Assembly: GCA_951406725.2 (NCBI GenBank)
Contig: OX597823.1
Location: 54,684,001-54,748,000 of the forward strand
Length of the DNA stretch: 64,000 nt
DNA from: Octopus vulgaris
Lineage: Eukaryota
Reading direction: 5' to 3'
Below the pieces are notes generated by a model that did no database searches, was not told the DNA's origin, and saw nothing but the letters and a program-made list of their open reading frames with translations. Positions 1,480 to 63,429 of this stretch are shown here, piece by piece. Each line of letters starts with the position of its first letter. Position 1 is the first letter of the stretch. The translations under genes and the position numbers were made by a program.

Positions 1480-2136
1480 ATGAAGCAATTCACTCTGCCA
1501 GAAATTTGGAAATGACATACTGTACTGCTTGGCATTCACACTGGAAGCTCCAATATGAACATTTCAAAGTGCTTGACTGTCACTCTGAGGACAGTGCAGA
1601 GGATTTGGAAAGAGTTGGATGAGTCTAATGGTGATTATGAAGGTATGGCAGCTTGGAAAACTCACTTTGATTGTTTTGGTAAAAAAAGAACTCCTGAATT
1701 TGTTGGTGAGATCCAGGCCATGATTGACAATGATCCTTCCAAGTCAATCCGGTCCATCACCAGGGTCATAGGAGCGTCTGAATTTCTTATCAGGCAAGTA
1801 GTGCATGAAGAGATTCAGTATTCCTCATACAAGATGACAAAGGACCAATTTTTATCCCAAGCCATCACGGACAGGAGGAAAGACCATGCTACAAAGCTTT
1901 TAAACAAACTCAAGCATCCCCTCCAACCGAACATGCTTTGGTTTTTCTCAGATGAGAAAAATTTCTGCCAGGATCAGATGGTGAACACACAGAACAACTG
2001 TAGGCTAGCTGTGCCTCCAAAACATGTACAGTCAACATCGTGGTGTTTGGAGTGATCACTAGTGATGGTGACATTATGCCTCCATTCACCTTCCCACACA
2101 GCCTCAGACTTAACACAGAGGCCTACATCAAGTGCC
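1480..2136 (+). pseudogene. Tc1/mariner-superfamily (maT/DD37D-like) transposase fragment, disrupted
   Basis: ORF 1555-2055 has HTH segments (TLRTVQRIWK; PSKSIRSITR) and first-D motif WFFSDEKNF. It continues after a frameshift as VVFGVITSDGDIMPPFTFP..LNTEAYIKCL. In-frame stop near the N-terminus. Confidence 0.8.
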
Positions 2137-9247: not shown

Positions 9248-11098
9248 CTGAAAGACAAATGGGAATGTTAAAATTTGGTGTATGCACATAACATTACATT
9301 TGGTCATCATCTATTTAGGTCAGCTAAAATTTATTCATAAATACCTGACATAAAAAGGGTAAAGACCCTGCTTCAGTCAAGAATGGCCATGGGATTGCAC
9401 CTAGAAAGTTACCCTCCAAAGCACAAGTCTGGGCAAGGTTTTCCTCATGCATAACAACCTCCCCTCTCCACACCACCGATGTTGTCCAAGGGAAAGGCAA
9501 AAGCCGATACAGCTTGGCACCAGTGTCATTGCAACTCATTTCTACAATTACTATCTCATGATTGTGACCCTGACACTCTAACTGCTAATCCATGTATCTT
9601 CACAAATACTTGACATATCTTGTATATTATTAATAAGGTGGTGAGCTAGTAGAATCATTAGCACATTGAACAATACGTCTAGTGGCATTTCTTCTTTGTG
9701 TTCTTTATGTATTGACTTCAAATTCTGCGAAGGTCACCTTTGCCTTTTCTTCTTCCGGTGGTTAATAAAATAAAGTAGTAGTCAAATACTGGAGTTGATG
9801 AAATCAACTTACTTCTTTCAAAACTTTTGGCTTCCTTCCAAAATTAAAAAGAATTATTATCATTATTATCATCATCATAAGGTGGTGAGCTTGCAGAATC
9901 ATTAGCATGCCAGGCATAATGCTTAACAGCATTTTGTCCATCTTTATGTTCTTAGTTCAAATTCCGCTGGCATTGACTTTGCCTTCCATCCTTTCAGGTT
10001 CGATAAAATAAGTACCATTTGAGTACTGGGGTCGATGTAATAGACTTAACTCCCTGCCCTGAAATTACTGGCCTTGTGTCAAAATTTGAAGCCATTATTA
10101 TTATTGTTATTATTGAGTGAGAGAGCAGTGCATGCCATCAAAGATACACTGAGCATGTCACAAGCAGAAGTAGTGAGGGAGCATCATAGCCATGTGTTGA
10201 GAGGAATTCTTTGGGGTTTGAATAATTCATCACTGAAAACATGGGTGTTTCTTTCACCATCCATAAACAAATCTTATTGAAGTCAATGTATAAAGAACAA
10301 AAAGAAGAAAGGCCACTAGACATGTTGTTCAATGTACTAATGATTCTCCTAGCTCACCAACTTTATTAATAATATACAAGATATGTCAGGTATTTTTGAA
10401 GATACATGGATTAGCGGTTAATGACAGGCTCACAATCATGAGGCAGCCCTTGTGACCAATAAAAGAAATCATGAATAATATTAATCCGCTAACTTTTTAT
10501 TTTTGTACGTACCTGTTGTGTGTGTCACACTTACTTTAAAGAAGTGGCAAAGCGAGAGAGAGAGTGAGTGAGAGAGTGAAAGAGACAGTGAGTGGTGATG
10601 GCGTTCGTTTTGTGCTTTTAAACGTTTATCCCATCACAAGAGAAGTAGATACATAGATACATATACACATTGTTAAATTAAAAGCAGGTGAGAAGAGGGA
10701 CACAATATAAGTGAAAGAGAAAGAGAGATAGTGAGAGAGACAGTAGATGCATAAATCCAAATAAATAAAATATATTGACAGTCAATTTCACTTTTCATTA
10801 CCATCCGAGGACAAAATTAACTCACAAATGGCTGAGTACTCCACAGACATGCATAACATTAACGTAGTTCTCAGGGAGATTCAGTCTCACACAGAATATG
10901 ACAAGGCTGGCCCCTTTGAATTACAGCTACAACTCAAGTCGTATATATATGTGAATGTATTTGTGTGTGTGTATAGTATAGGTTGGTTAAAACATGTTTG
11001 CAATAATAAGTGTCGCGTGGTGGAAATAAATGCAATTACCAAATTTTCATTCATAAATCCATTTACTATTTCATTCTTTTGCATTTTAATTTGCACAT

Positions 11099-11665
11099 TT
11101 GGACCCAGAAATTTTCAACGACTGTACGCCAGAAGAAATAGAAAAGCAAGTTATTTTATCTCCTAAAAATTCTGACTGTCTTGCAATAAATGAGAAAGTT
11201 CTTAAAATTATACCAGTGGCACTTAAAATGTACTTAAGCACAGATTCAGTGTCCTGCAATAATGATGAGGAGGTTCAGAACTATCCATTTGAATTTGTAA
11301 ACTCAGTCACTCCATCCAGTATGCCTCCTCATTACCTTAACTTAAAAGTAGGGGCTATTGTAATGCTGCTAAGAAATGTTTTGACCAGTCAAGGATTACG
11401 TAATGGAACTTGCATGAAAGTGCAAAGATTTCATGAACATTGTGTAGAGGCATCATTGGTAACAGGCTCCAACAGAGGTCGTACAGTTCTAATTCCCAGA
11501 ATTAAACTTAGCCCAGTGATGCAAATATTCCATTCACACTAAACAGACTTCAATTTCCACTTCGACTTGCATATTCAATAACAATTAATAAGGCTCAAGA
11601 GCAAGCATTTGAAAAAAGTTGGAATACATTTGCCTCAACCGGTATTTTCTCATGTCGCATTTTCA
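11099..11665 (+). pseudogene. Helitron Rep-Hel Pif1-type helicase fragment
   Basis: ILSPKN, NYPFEFVNS...MPPHYLNLKVGAIVMLLRN...GLRNGT and LIPRIKL, then after a frameshift RLQFPLRLAYSITINKAQ and VGIHLPQPVFSH. These are hallmark Helitron helicase motifs. Confidence 0.9.
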
Positions 11666-16125: not shown

Positions 16126-17140
16126 AAAAACAAACTTTAAGGGCTGTCCACCATCCAACCAAGCATGGAAAACATGTTAAATGGTGATGGTGATGATATA
16201 TATATGTTTTTGCCTGTTCCATCACATGTTTGACAAATGGTGTTGGTTTGTTTACATCCCTGTAACTTAGTGGTTTGACAAAATGATATCAATAGGATAA
16301 CTATTGTGTGTGTGTGTTACTGTCTCAAGCAGTGTTGCCAGTCCTCCACAAAATCATGTCTGGTCATAGGGAAATATTACCTTACTTAGAAATGGGTGTG
16401 GGCCAGTGACAGGAAGGGGGAATCCAGCTGTAGAAAACCCGCCTCAACAAAGTTCACTATGACCCATGGGAACATTGAATGTGTGTGTGTGTGCGTGTGT
16501 GTGTGTGCGTGTGTGTGTGTGCGTGTGTGTGTGTGTGTGTATTTATGCACATACAGATGTATATAGATGCATATATATTCCTATTATGCATTCATATGTA
16601 TATCTAACACTATGTTACACACACACACACACACACACATACATACACACACACACACACTTTATATCTGTATATATATCATGTAAATAACATATAAATA
16701 TACATATACACATACACATATGTATATATGTAAATATATAGATTATGCTGTAGATATGTCTGCATACACAATATGTATGCATGTATGTATCTATTTATTC
16801 ATACAAAGACATGCGTACACACACAATTACATGCTTACATTCACATGAATATGACACATTTTTTCACTTACATCTTTTATTTCATACACAAAAAATATGT
16901 TCATGTGGACAATTATGTATACATATCCATAAAAATGAATCCACACATGGATTTCATGCAATTACACCTGCATGCACACACATATACAGCAATTCTCTAT
17001 ACTAACACATCTTTACAGGTACAATAAGCTCACACGCATACACAGATCTTCTCTATACAAATGCACCAATGTAGATACAACACACATATATACACACACA
17101 CTCACACCTGTTTGCAATTCAGATTGCACACACACACACA

Positions 17141-18195
17141 AGTGCTTGCACATAACCTGACATACACCTCATCACACATACATGCACAAACACCTGCGCA
17201 CATACCAACAGTCACACACACACACACACATACACGCACGCACACATACACGCACACACACACAGACACACACACGTGCCTGTAAATAACCTGGCATACA
17301 CCTCATCACACTTACATGCACAAACACCTGTGCACATACCAACAGTCACACACACCCAGATACATATACACACATACATTTGTATACCTGTACATACACA
17401 GATAAGCTGCCCACACACACACACATGTGCCTGTGCATAACTTGGCATACACCTCATCACACAAACATGCACAAACACCTGTGCACATACCAACAGTCAC
17501 ACATCCAGATACAGGTACACACACACATTTGCACACCTGTACACACACAGATAAGCTGCCCACACACACACACACACACACACGCACACACACACATGTG
17601 CCTGTGCATAACCTGACATACACCTCATCACACATACATGCACAAACACCTGTGCACATACCAACAGTCACACAAATCCAGATACAGGTACACACACACA
17701 TTTGCACACCTGTACACACACAGATAAACTGTGTATGCACACACACACATGTGCCTGTGCATAACCTGGCATACACCTCATCACACATACATGCACAAAC
17801 ACCTGTTCACATACCAACAGTCACACACATCCAGATACAGGTACACACACACACAATTGCACACCTGTACACACACAGATAAGCTGCCCCCCCACACACA
17901 TACACACACGTGTCTGTGCATAACCTGACATACACCTCATCACACATACATGTACAAACACCTGTGCACATACCAACAGTCATACACACCCAGATACAGA
18001 TACTCACACACATTTGTACACCTGTACACACACAGATAAGCTGCACACACACACACACGTGCCTGTGCATAACCTGACATACACCTCATCACACATACAT
18101 GCGCAAACACCTGTGCACATACCAACAGTCACAAACACCCAGATACAGGTACATACACACACATTTGCACACCTGTACACATACAGATAAACCGC
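17141..18195. repeat. complex CA-rich tandem repeat, about 7 units of 135-170 bp
   Basis: Unit core GTGCCTGTGCATAACCTGRCATACACCTCATCACAC...ATACCAACAGTCACAC recurs near 17141, 17275, 17426, 17597, 17750, 17909 and 18058. Confidence 0.9.
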
Positions 18196-26951: not shown

Positions 26952-27485
26952 TATATACACACAAATACATAGATATGCACTCAGAGACATACATAAGTAT
27001 AAGTAAACACTCCTCTCTCTCTCTATATATATATATAGATTATACACGCACATGAACACATACACATACACTCACACATGCAAAGCACGCTTACGCACAA
27101 GCGCTCGTGCATATATAGAACTCTTTCTGATGTGGCCACACTCAGCTGATTGACAAATCATTCCCAAGATCTGCTGTCATGATGTCATCCTGTCAATATA
27201 TTGCCATGTCATCACAATATATCAAATCTTCACTTTAGCACCAATCTGTTTTAATTCCATTACTTTTAACGACATGTACTCCACTATAGACATAGACAGC
27301 TGTCTCATTTTTAAACTCACTCTCAACACACTCTCTTTTTCCTATCTCCCCTATTTTTTGTTTGTTTTTGGTAACACATCTATATATACAGCTCTATATT
27401 TGAGAGATGAGGAATTATGAGCATTATTTACATTATTTACATTATTTACATTCAACGGATATTTGTCCTCACATTGTTTGTTGTT

Positions 27486-27531
27486 AACACAACGTTTCGG
27501 CTGATATACCCTCCAGCCTTCATCAGGTATC
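27486..27531 (-). ncRNA. minimal type I hammerhead ribozyme
   Basis: GAUAC-CUGAUGA-A-GGCUG(GAGGGUAUAU)CAGCC-GAAAC-GUU-GUGUU. Palindromic AACGUU helix III. Confidence 0.75.
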
Positions 27532-27584
27532 TTGGGGAAATTTCGAACCTGAGTTTTCATTCCTAAAGTATTTTTCAATGTTAC

Positions 27585-27623
<39 letters not shown>

Positions 27624-27671
27624 CATTATTATTATTATTATTATTATTAACCACTATGCCATATGCCCACG

Positions 27672-27743
27672 GGCATATGGCGTAGTGGTTAAGAGCGCGG
27701 GCTACTAACCCCAAGATTCTGACTTTGATTCCAAGCAGTGACC
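27672..27743 (+). promoter_or_regulatory. tRNA-derived head with Pol III A box and degenerate B box
   Basis: A box TGGCGTAGTGG, anticodon-arm-like GGG-CTACTAA-CCC, B-box-like GACTTTGATTCC (AGTTCAATTCC in the 33126-33201 copy). Confidence 0.65.
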
Positions 27744-27814
27744 TGAACAATAATAATAATTATAACATCAGAAAATACCTTAGGAATGAGAACCCAGGTT
27801 CGAAATTTCCTCAA

Positions 27815-27860
27815 GACACCTGAAGAAGGTTGGAGGGTATATCAGCCGAAACGTTGTGTT
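27815..27860 (+). ncRNA. minimal type I hammerhead ribozyme
   Basis: GACAC-CUGAAGA-A-GGUUG(GAGGGUAUAU)CAGCC-GAAAC-GUU-GUGUU. Confidence 0.75.
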
Positions 27861-28217
27861 AACAACAAACAAGATGAGGAGAAATATCCGTTGAATGTAA
27901 ATAATGTAAATAATGCACATGTATATATGGTCACTTAATCTTAATTCAAAAAACCATACCTTTCAGTTTTACATGAAAAAAGGGGACAATAGTGAATATA
28001 GAACCAGGTATACTCAGCTTCATCATCATTGTTGGGATCATCGTCTTTTTCATCATCATCATTGCCATTGTCATTATAACTATCATCACCATCATCATCA
28101 TTACTATCTTCATTATCATCATCACCAGCACTACCATCATCACGTCATCATCACAATCATCATCACCACCATCACCACCATCACCACCACCACCACCACC
28201 TTCATCTCTTGTGTGTA

Positions 28218-32920: not shown

Positions 32921-33065
32921 TATTATTTACATTATTTACATTTGACGGATATTTGTCTTCATCTTGTTTGTTGTTAACACAACATTTCGACTGATATACC
33001 CTCCAGCCTTCTTCAGGTGTCTTGGGGGAAATTTCGAACCTGCATTCTCATTCCTATTATTGTTG

Positions 33066-33099
<34 letters not shown>

Positions 33100-33201
33100 C
33101 ATTATTATTATTATTATTATTATTGTTCAGGTCACTGCTTGGAATTGAACTTGGAATCTTGGGGTTAGTAGCCCGCGTTCTTAACCACTACGCCATATGC
33201 C
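32921..33201 (-). mobile_element. PLE 3' pseudo-LTR: tRNA-like head, (AAT)n, HHR, tail
   Basis: Homologous to both arms at 27390-27915. Begins about 30 nt after the GIY-YIG-like stop codon. Confidence 0.7.
32976..33021 (-). ncRNA. minimal type I hammerhead (third copy of the 27.5-kb family)
   Basis: GACAC-CUGAAGA-A-GGCUG(..)CAGUC-GAAAU-GUU-GUGUU. Confidence 0.68.
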
Positions 33202-33231
33202 TTTGAGTAATTATGGAGTGAATTTTAGGGC

Positions 33232-33390
33232 TTATAAATATAATATCTTTCTATCCTTCCTTAATACTGATTCCCACATGCTGCTCATATCTGCACTCAG
33301 TCTGCTTAGGAGGTTGTTATGTCCAAGAATATGTGCTGCTTTTTTTAGTTTTCTTATATTCCAGTGGTGTTCTGTGTCCATTATATTAAA
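33232..33390 (-). pseudogene. Penelope-like GIY-YIG endonuclease C-terminal remnant
   Basis: NIMDTEHHWNIRKLKKAAHILGHNNLLSRLSADMSSMWESVLRKDRKILYL* resembles the I-D-x-E-xx-W-xx-R-xx-KEA-xx-I...N...W PLE endonuclease tail. Recognised by eye. Confidence 0.65.
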
Positions 33391-36556: not shown

Positions 36557-37433
36557 TTTCCTTCCTTCCTTCCTTCCTTCCTTCCTTCCTTCCTTCTTTC
36601 TTTCTTTCTTTCTTTCTTTCTTTTCTCTCTCTTTCTATTTTTATCTCACTGTCCCAGAATTGGTTATAGCTGACGAAAGGATGGGTTTAAGAAAAAAAGG
36701 GAGACAAAGGGAAACCAATTTCATATTCACCCATGAAAATTCCATGACAGGTGTTTGTCATGAAAATGACCAAGGGTTATTTTGCTCATCTGGTGGGAAA
36801 GAAGCAGTATATATATATATATATATATATATGCATACTCACTGTCATCATTTAGTGTCTGCTTTCTTTGCAAGTCACTGCATAGTTTGTGTGTATGTAT
36901 GAGTGTGTGCATGCATGTGGGTTTACACATATGCACACACACTCACATGTCTACACATGCACATATATGAAAATAAAAGAAATATATATATATATAAATA
37001 TATATATTATATTCATGACAAATCCCTGCATGGTTTCTATCTGCCAAATTCTATTTACAATGTATTTGTCAATCCATGGATGCGTAATTTTTAATAGTTT
37101 CTTCCTTTTCTTATATTTAAAGTGTAAAATAGAAAGACAACTTGAATTTGGAAGGTTTATTTATTTATTTATTTATTTATTTATTTTGTATTCAACATTA
37201 AGTTTAATCTCAAAAAGAATGAGTCAATAATAGATCTCTTGTATGGTCACTTGATGAGTTAGAAATAGCAGCTAAACCTTTCTCAAATTGCTCCTTAATG
37301 AGTTTAGTAAAAAAAAAAACACAGTGGATATTGTGAAGTATATTTGCCACTTAAATGTAGCTAACCTTTAAGGGTGGATGCTACTGTATTTGCAAAGGGA
37401 AGCTATCCTTCCCAGCTTTAATCTGACATGATA

Positions 37434-37478
37434 CACACGGACTCGAGTTTCTGGGTATTGACCTGTCATCAGCATGTG
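37434..37478 (-). ncRNA. type I hammerhead ribozyme
   Basis: CACAUG-CUGAUGA-CA-GGU(CAAU)ACC-CA-GAAAC-UCGA-GUC-CGUGUG. Palindromic ACUCGAGU. Confidence 0.7.
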
Positions 37479-37915
37479 ACAATCATCAATTGCCGATGAA
37501 AAGTGGGTCCCCTTTGCAAATATATATCCTTTTTCCAGTGACAAAAAGTCACTGATCTTGAAAAAGTGTAAACAAGCAATAATAAATCTCTGAGCGAGGT
37601 ATAAACAATAGCTGCACAACAACGTGAAAAAGGATATATATTTTCACTGGAAAAAGGATATATATTTTCATTGATGTTGGTGTTTTAATGTTCCTGAAAT
37701 CTAGCAGTTCAGCAAAAGAGACTGATAGAACAAGTACTAGGCTTACAAACAATAAGTCCTGGGATCGAATTCTTTGACTAAAAAACTATTTAAAGTGGTC
37801 CTCCAGCATGGCCACAGTCAAATGATTGAAATAAGTAAAAGAATAAAAGAACATATATATATATATATATATACACACACATGTATGTATGCATGTATAA
37901 TTAATATAAATAATG

Positions 37916-56005: not shown

Positions 56006-56635
56006 CATTGTGTACAGTGCTCAGGTGCACTACAACTCGTCTAAAGTGTATGTATAGTACATAGGGTAATGTACAAGCGCCAGGAAAAGAACAGTGCATG
56101 AGTCATGACATACACATATGTGTATGAGTATGGAAAGGGGACAATCAGGTGTAGTTTTGGCGGATTTCGGAAAGCATGAGGGCCTTAAAGGATGCAGTGT
56201 CATGGCAGTCAACAACTGACGCAAGCAGTTTGTTCCATGCTTCAGCAACTCTGAGCGTGAAAAAATGTTTCTGAAAGTCATGGGAGCTGTGCTGTTTTCT
56301 GACTTTGTAGGCATGTCCACGTGTTATGGACACATGGAAATCAAAAAGGTGTTCAGTGTTGTTGTTGGTGAGGTGGTTGATAACTTTGTGGGTGTTTACC
56401 AAGTCCATCGCCAGACGCCGGAGCTTCAGTGAATCCATGCCCAGGGAAACAAGGCGCTCAGAGTATGGTAGGTGTCTGATGGAGGGTATGCATTTAGTTG
56501 CACGTCTCTGAACAGATTCCAGGAGGTCAATGTTCTGAGCAAGATAGGGGTTCCAAACTGATGATGCGAATTCCAAGTGTGGTCGTACCATAGCTGCATA
56601 CAGCTTTAAATAGATGGCTGGAGAGCGGCTAACAC
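55990..56635 (-). mobile_element. CR1-clade LINE 5'-truncated 3' fragment
   Basis: ORF 56145-56591: VRPHLEFASSVWNP, LESVQRRATK, YSERL, LRRL..DL, TRGH, FFTLRV..AWNKL. The 3' tail GTAGTGCACCTGAGCACTGTA + (TTA)n is also seen at 1-25 and about 3615. Confidence 0.92.
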
Positions 56636-57175
56636 ATATTATAAAATGCTGTAAATTTAGAATTATTCCAATAGTGTTGCCATTTAGATTACATGCAATC
56701 TCTCTTTATGTCAACGTTACATTAATTTAGTATTACCAAATCTATTGCAATGAGCAAGAAAAAATATGACACGGTACTGAGGAAGGGATAGCATCATCTC
56801 AATGACAATATTAGCTCAAACGATGTTTGAACTAATATTATCTATTTCTTATTGCATAATTTTCTTTTCTAATTTGGTTTATGATCCTCATTACTTTAAA
56901 TATACTGAAAAAAACTTAACTGTTAATTTTTGTGCAGATGGTGCAGAATTGGCTGTATGGTTAATAAGTGTGCTTGCCAAGCATATGATTTGAGGTTCAG
57001 TCCCATTATGTGAAGACTTGGGCAAGTACCTTCTACTATAGCTCTAGGCTGATCAAAGCATTGTGAGTGGTTGACAGAATCTGAAAACTCATCATATATT
57101 ATGTGTGTATATATATATCTTCCAGGTATCATGTATCCCAAAAAGAAGCACTCTCTAAAACAGAATTTCAGGTTT

Positions 57176-63020: not shown

Positions 63021-63429
63021 TATGAATCGTTGGTGATTTTCTTCCTCTGTCTTCCCTTCTACTGGACTCTCCTCTGTTTCCAAAGAAGAGCACTTGCTCA
63101 AAACATTAAACCATCTTTCTTTCCTTTCCTGAGCATTTGCTAACACATTACATGTGCGACATCCTTGCGTTGTTTTTTGTGTTTGTTCTTTTTGGATTTA
63201 CTATATATATATATATATATATATATACATACCACGTGTGTATCATTGGCGATTGTTTTCCTCCCTTTTCCCTTCCTTGGATCTTTCCTTTTCCTATGTT
63301 TCTGACGAAGAGCTCCGCTTGAAACGTTAATCCTCCTTCTTTCTTTCCTTTCCTGAGTGTCCAATAACACTATACTTGTTCCATGTCCTCGCATTGTTGT
63401 GTTTTCTCTTTGTGTTTTTATGTTTGGAT

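Follow-up and report, generated by a model that had tools for sequence, protein, structure and literature searches.

What is a tRNA-like sequence with A and B boxes doing between the stop codon of a retrotransposon and the hammerhead ribozyme that follows it? The question is raised by positions 32921-33389 (minus strand) of the window, by which we mean the whole 64,000-nucleotide stretch of Octopus vulgaris DNA analysed here. We suggest, with modest confidence, that this is a truncated copy of an autonomous Penelope-like element (PLE), that the tRNA-like head between its stop and start codons is likely the promoter, and that the polymerase is probably RNA polymerase III (Pol III). The usual view is that autonomous retrotransposons depend on Pol II or, in the case of R2, on read-through by Pol I. 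If Pol III starts at the head, this would be a new transcription mode for a protein-coding retroelement.

Layout of the locus

The stretch 32921-33389 (minus) is a 5'-truncated copy of a high-copy Penelope/Poseidon-like element. An earlier note on this DNA had read here, in minus-strand order, an ORF end, a TAA stop, a tRNA-like head, (AAT)n and a hammerhead, and each part is found in its place. The copy is cut off on its 5' side at ~33389 and opens with the 3' end of the PLE ORF, the C-terminus of the GIY-YIG domain (33235-33389, minus), recognised from the sequence, from a match to the PLE protein P0006 and from the frames of the family. The stop codon TAA (33234-33232, minus), confirmed as claimed, is overlapped by a TATA-like TATAAG (33231-33236, minus), putative and judged from sequence only, which lies 28 nt before the inferred RNA start. 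A leader (33203-33208, minus) comes ahead of the tRNA-like part, and its position 33208 corresponds to G(-8), the hard 5' limit of the copies that start at the head; this nucleotide is mutated in the focal copy. The tRNA-like head, without a cloverleaf, extends over 33126-33202 (minus), the head proper being 76 nt long (33201-33126), and carries an A box at 33195-33185 and a B box, CpG-decayed in the focal copy, at 33152-33141 (both minus).

Downstream of the head lie an (AAT)n microsatellite whose length varies from copy to copy (33055-33124, minus), the ATG that opens the ORF of the element when the repeat serves as the 5' pseudo-LTR, or pLTR (33049-33051, minus), a minimal type I hammerhead within the reading frame (32976-33021, minus) and the 3' part of the pLTR (32921-32975, minus). 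The last ends in AATGTAAAT repeats, the first cluster of copy 3' ends. These AATGTAAAT repeats had been taken for the tail, which proved incorrect: the true PLE tail is ~35 nt long, lies beyond AATGTAAAT and is absent from the focal copy.

A second unit of head, (AAT)n and hammerhead had been reported at 27672-27914. It is indeed there (head 92%, 3' part 92%), but it forms part of a head-to-head inverted pair and has no upstream ORF. One arm is a repeat-only copy beginning at G(-8) of the head (27665-27915, plus), and the inverted partner arm (27389-27664, minus) includes, besides the tail (35 nt), the hammerhead and (AAT)n, the initial ~24 nt of the head copied in fold-back form.

The element and its protein

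Copy counts and loci are taken from the 2.8-Gb genome G000, which holds thousands of copies of the family; the ORF end is itself repeated there, with 1594 candidates. Walking upstream yields RT and N-terminal regions and then near full-length copies of ~2.6 kb, and the extension to a full RT + GIY-YIG ORF, proposed in the earlier note as a check, reaches ~800 codons. Taking the majority codon column by column in 57 segments (65 had been collected, of which 8 near-duplicates were left out) gives an open run of 798 codons. The ORF starts at the ATG inside the repeat and its reading frame crosses the hammerhead; this N-terminal stretch of the protein shares 45% identity with the N-terminus of P0006.

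Natural frames of the family, longer than the focal peptide, match RVT_1 of Pfam (E 2.4e-10), are 48-63% identical to the PLE-like proteins P0002-P0006 and match GIY-YIG clusters with an atlas score of 0.96, 20-28% of the cluster members carrying PF01541. Pfam gave no GIY-YIG match in the six frames, and a PDB sequence search gave no match. By itself, the 53-aa peptide at the end of the focal ORF has no Pfam match; it matches the C-terminus of the full-length PLE protein P0006 with 24 of 46 residues identical.

The element is of the EN+ PLE class, having a PLE-type RT in a single ORF, a C-terminal GIY-YIG, the pLTR arrangement and a minimal type I hammerhead. Its pLTRs occur in partial tandem, with an inverted 5' partner and an optional tail of 30-40 nt. 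The clade is probably Penelope/Poseidon, and by eye the family frames are without the CxxC-type linker seen in the control families L328 and L330. Family copies are 5-8% diverged, 11 long copies lie 5-7% off the column majority, and no intact full ORF occurs among the loci fetched; the family may be inactive.

Two other PLE families were met in G000, one at L328 (C6:4.40 Mb) and L329 (C3:148.38 Mb), the other at L330 (C1:142.52 Mb) and L331 (C13:16.06 Mb). They have open frames of 750-802 aa with a CxxC-type linker before the endonuclease, served as controls for T4 runs, and are probably younger than the focal family.

The hammerhead reported at 33021-32976 is confirmed as minimal type I and fits the minimal PLE motif as defined in the accessible text of PMC4209133. 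It has a stem I of 5 bp, a stem II of 6 bp, the core, the unpaired nucleotide before stem II and a palindromic stem III, mutated in the focal copy from ACGT to ATGT; the predicted cut falls after GUU at 32981. Among five distant relatives the stem sequences vary and the pairing is kept, in stem I in 3/5 by a strict count and in stem II in 5/5. Single-strand folding gives neither hammerhead nor head significant stability (z -1.1 to +0.4), which for the hammerhead is expected because it is of the minimal, dimer-type form. Cleavage is predicted only as a dimer or with the help of protein.

The head as part of the terminal repeat

The head directly follows the ORF end in 29/29 other ORF-end loci, and the view that it belongs to the element is upheld. 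A chance SINE insertion in the focal copy alone is excluded by these same loci. No TSDs of the head's own were seen. The hammerhead part comes after the head in 78 of 90 copies; the remaining 12 break in or before (AAT)n, several of them at other repeats.

The place of the head relative to the start codon is given by the junction copies L244 and L261, which run from the ORF end through head, (AAT)n, ATG and hammerhead into the ORF N-terminus. Their non-coding gap from stop to ATG holds ~30 nt, the head, (AAT)n and ~20 nt, and nothing else. Standing in the 5' pLTR ahead of the start codon, a placement overlooked in the earlier note, the head is therefore a candidate promoter of the autonomous element; the promoter of Penelope itself is mapped to the pLTR in the available part of PMC2377424.

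Exact 23-nt patterns are found in G000 3743 times for the head and 7426 times for the hammerhead (reversed controls, 0), far above what chance would give. Along the element such counts step from 759 (~195 nt upstream) and 847 (~38 nt upstream) to 3743 at the A box, 6884 at the B box and 7426 at the hammerhead, patterns that differ in degeneracy and counts that are not exact copy numbers. Distant relatives carry the A/B head in 0/38 loci, the same scan finding 53/90 of the family's own heads, and the hammerhead in 9/38 by a strict scan. These 38 are the loci with an endonuclease end and at least 250 nt downstream, out of 80 metagenome loci, and such redundant and distant relatives date the capture of the head only loosely.

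The head has A and B boxes at tRNA spacing, and 53 of 90 heads pass the A/B-box scan, but neither ARAGORN (0 tRNA genes) nor Rfam (E<=10) recognises a tRNA in it. Local Rfam scans found neither tRNA nor hammerhead, and the head shows no acceptor stem and no cloverleaf. Its closest matches among 30 sampled genomic tRNA loci of a few isotypes are modest, Arg-TCG and Arg-TCT, with mean scores of 54 and 53 vs 27 for shuffled sequence. The head would probably stem from a tRNA-derived SINE or a piece of tRNA, captured once by a master element.

5' ends of the copies

The copies that begin exactly at the head were counted, as the earlier note had proposed. Out of 90 copies with a head, 68 have their start 0-9 nt upstream of it, an interval in which 2.0 starts are expected from the truncation rate in the ORF (0.002 per nt), and the other 22 continue toward the ORF. 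The 90 are the first of 3743 matches, all on contig C1, a few duplicates included. A sample anchored on the hammerhead comprises 70 units (the first 30 and 40 chosen from 100 listed, most second arms skipped). Their 5' ends fall before (AAT)n in 21, within it in 13, inside the head in 14, at the head start in 16 and beyond it in 6; the head start is the 5' end in 16 of the 22 that reach it.

All G000 loci sampled together contain 232 distinct heads, a set enriched for ORF-linked copies. ORF-linked heads number 87, and 11 more reach ~-20 or further. Of the rest, 94 have their end within -7 to 0 or cannot be placed because of divergence, 14 end at G(-8) exactly, 3 match for one T more and 23 show fold-back. 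Of 8 template-jump junctions listed, 5 restart at G(-8) with A or AA preceding it (L167, L168, L180 twice, L297). From G(-8) the A box lies 13 nt downstream and the TATA-like motif 28 nt upstream. Since most head-bearing copies start at or just inside G(-8), a fixed 5' end of the RNA is indicated; these copy boundaries support an RNA start at the head well, and from them we infer that this start is G(-8).

Two rival explanations concern this boundary. According to the first, which we regard as improbable, there is no start site at the head; the hairpin across the junction would make RT stall or fold back as it copies long tandem transcripts, so that truncations accumulate there. The junction is indeed palindromic and fold-back is seen in 23/232 heads, the palindrome at 27646-27693 in the window being an example. 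However, the 5' arm of the hairpin extends to -16, yet among the 232 distinct heads no copy that retains the 8-nt leader ends between -10 and -16; moreover, 14 stop at G(-8) without fold-back, template jumps among them, and elsewhere in the ORF truncation amounts to 0.002 per nt.

According to the second, a longer transcript contains the head folded in the manner of a tRNA, and RNase P cuts at the 5' end of the head. This is hardly credible. In 35/68 head-start copies the match goes only 1-3 nt upstream, near the +1 of a tRNA; nevertheless, many copies reach -8, upstream of +1, the inverted arm often shares a GG microhomology just where copies end at -1 to -3, and a head without acceptor stem or cloverleaf leads us to reject processing by RNase P.

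In four copies (L045, L129, L450 and L466) the 5' end falls further out, at -21 to -28. An Inr-like TTCACTC lies close by, downstream of the TATA-like motif and upstream of the head, and the site may be a relic or a second start. Composites in L151-L180 (e.g. L167, L168, L180, L153), made of a pLTR, 30-430 nt of the ORF N-terminus and a new head-started pLTR, look like RT template jumps; L167 and L168 have a common breakpoint and may represent one small non-autonomous subfamily.

Which polymerase reads the element

We suggest that Pol III would be the likeliest driver at the head. The placement of the boxes and the similarity to genomic tRNAs speak for it, the failure of ARAGORN and Rfam to recognise the head against it. 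The competing proposal, which we consider unlikely, keeps G(-8) as the RNA start but has Pol II directed there by the TATA-like motif that overlaps the stop of the tandem copy upstream. The head would then be either cargo picked up by capture or an internal element used by Pol II, and the short copies would again arise by internal RT initiation. The spacing of 28 nt from TATAAG to G(-8) is also compatible with Pol II; in the place of the head, the distant relatives L383, L397 and L429 show TATA- and Inr-like motifs by eye, and a capped mRNA would be easily translated. The pLTR is the site of the PLE promoters characterised so far, and splicing of the Penelope RNA has been described (PMC2377424, PMC8557442, in their accessible parts). 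Against Pol II speak the A box 13 nt after the start, the B box at tRNA spacing, the lack of a T4 run in the unit and the long copies L275 and L288, which begin at the head and continue into the ORF without a TATA motif.

The lack of T4 runs extends to the ORF: 0 are found in 2667 core columns, where 2.7 (P 0.029) or 3.7 (P 0.011) are expected over 798 codons, and the counts in three ORFs from the two control families of G000 (5, 6 and 9) agree with expectation. Without a T4 run Pol III could transcribe the whole ORF, a weak argument from a test that is post hoc and weak. A5 runs are low too (8 vs 13, P 0.02), three short frames of relatives likewise have 0 T4 runs and a low T content, and single copies do contain T4 runs (three in L299, one in L303).

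In its strongest form, the Pol III reading would have an autonomous PLE swap Pol II for a captured tRNA-type Pol III promoter, lose all T4 from its 2.7-kb unit, be transcribed end to end by Pol III, be translated from uncapped RNA and produce repeat-only copies from the same start. We advance this full version only tentatively, as a minority reading that we think unlikely. Pol III can reportedly give translatable RNA, as a 1995 title by Gunnery and Mathews, cited in PMC8223928, has it. If whole-ORF transcription by Pol III is true, a ready route would lead from PLEs to ribozyme SINEs of the SM-alpha kind.

RNA-seq on the full-length copy L283 (~6% of each of three raw RNA runs, and one contig set) covers the two orientations equally deeply and shows no accumulation of starts at the head, and 75-79% of the reads run on into unlike sequence. 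Such a pattern is compatible with copies scattered through the genome being transcribed passively, the library being possibly unstranded, and is silent on Pol III.

Origin of the short copies

The terminal repeat had been proposed to be an independently transcribed SINE- or retrozyme-like unit, here one mobilised in trans by the PLE. Repeat-only copies exceed ORF-linked ones ~3 to 1, each unit has A and B boxes and no T4 run, and schistosome SM-alpha provides a precedent (PMC6765202, available text). The comparison of copies nevertheless makes an independent Pol III SINE or retrozyme very improbable. Head-start and ORF-linked copies share variants, diverge equally (7.3% vs 7.8%) and have the inverted partners typical of PLEs. 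When 68 head-start copies are compared with 72 ORF-linked ones, none of the 57 variable columns holds a head-start-specific allele, the lowest P being 0.0025, for a minor allele in the ORF-linked copies; both polymorphisms checked are present in the two classes. A separate SINE subfamily is rejected on the shared variants and the equal divergence.

The repeat-only copies do not constitute a non-autonomous lineage distinct from its partner, as SINE2 elements do, and the tandem units, each with a hammerhead, that define non-LTR retrozymes are not found in the loci fetched. There the copies are single or in inverted pairs, with only a few junctions of pLTR, ORF piece and pLTR, and no tandem arrays of the repeat unit were seen. 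The short copies are SINE-like in behaviour and appear to come from the same masters as the autonomous element.

The 3' ends suggest how this might occur. They lie in or near the AATGTAAAT repeats in 39/70 units and ~35-40 nt beyond in 31/70, with 0 between. In the PAc element of Anolis two internal RT start sites define the tail, a mechanism demonstrated in vitro according to the accessible text of PMC11167929, and the two clusters of 3' ends mirror these two sites. By analogy with PAc, RT would start internally at two sites ~35 nt apart, ~110-165 nt past the ATG. Started on the 5' repeat, it would go ~300 nt back to the start of the RNA and leave SINE-like, repeat-only copies; started on the 3' repeat, it would pass the head and copy the ORF. 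Internal initiation on the 5' repeat would thus give repeat-only copies without a separate SINE. An inverted piece of pLTR lies upstream in 50/68 head-start copies. Such inverted pairs might be two cDNAs primed on opposite strands, or might form by fold-back at the self-complementary GCCC-AC-GGGC end. Two clusters of 3' ends and one wall of 5' ends provide genomic support, from a second animal lineage, for the internal initiation of PAc.

Relation to known elements

The published systems are compared here as they appear in the available parts of the papers cited. The closest is PAc of Anolis carolinensis (PMC11167929), which likewise has one RT ORF with a C-terminal GIY-YIG, an ORF whose start lies in the pLTR and whose frame overlaps a minimal hammerhead, an optional tail set by two 3'-end sites, and tandem and inverted partial copies. 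Unlike in PAc, the non-coding part of the pLTR here is the A/B-box head with (AAT)n, and most head-bearing copies start there; no tRNA-like pLTR head is described in those parts of the PAc and Penelope papers (PMC11167929, PMC2377424).

The schistosome SINEs SM-alpha and Sj-alpha share the order of a Pol III-type promoter, here a candidate one, and a hammerhead (PMC6765202, available text). They are non-coding and often in tandem, with no autonomous parent described there, whereas the unit studied here is the terminal repeat of a coding element. TRIMp3 elements (Cassandra, Helenus, Ajax) resemble it in having a small-RNA-derived Pol III promoter, again only a candidate in our case, inside the terminal repeat, but by the accessible text of PMC10886601 they are non-autonomous LTR elements whose autonomous partners are expected to use Pol II, and the present element is an autonomous PLE. 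Animal non-LTR retrozymes are also short pLTR-derived units with a type I hammerhead (bioRxiv 10.64898/2026.07.22.740005 and PMC7761336, in the parts available). They are defined by tandem units; here the units are single or inverted head to head, carry a tRNA-like head and form no lineage separate from the PLE. Non-autonomous Chlamys elements with the typical PLE structure are described in the available part of PMC8557442.

No report of a tRNA-headed pLTR was found in the literature searched; Repbase, Dfam, subscription journals and supplements lie outside this search and may hold the family. Sequence strings of the element had no literature match, and the accessible text of the octopus repeat annotation (PMC13282606) makes no mention of a hammerhead. 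A tRNA-type head in the promoter region of an EN+ PLE is a new variant. Terminal repeats with a promoter derived from a small RNA are on record for non-autonomous TRIMs, and here the head occupies the promoter slot of an autonomous PLE. It makes this element a candidate intermediate toward tRNA-headed hammerhead SINEs. For annotation, most copies resemble an ordinary SINE and could be misfiled.

Other features of the window

An Rfam scan of the whole window gave nothing but microsatellite-driven miRNA matches among the 150 of 221 rows listed. The remaining repeats of the window have a cephalopod-like look. By eye, we take the frame 1516-2055 (plus) to resemble a Tc1/mariner transposase, 11090-11542 (plus) a piece of Helitron/PIF1 helicase and 56145-56705 (minus) the RT end of a CR1-type element.

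A second, unrelated type I hammerhead-like motif is present at 37445-37472 (minus), in a repeat at ~37340-37550. Its stem I has 6 bp and its stem III is the palindrome CTCGAG, and similar sequence occurs downstream in L208; the repeat may be another hammerhead-bearing family. A hammerhead-like core with an ACGT stem III and a weak stem I lies at 63302-63328 (plus) inside a repeated unit of ~230 nt with a degenerate direct repeat at ~63075-63110, and may be due to chance or be a decayed retrozyme-like dimer. A minisatellite with a period of ~149-171 nt occupies 17127-18190 (plus) in 6 copies.
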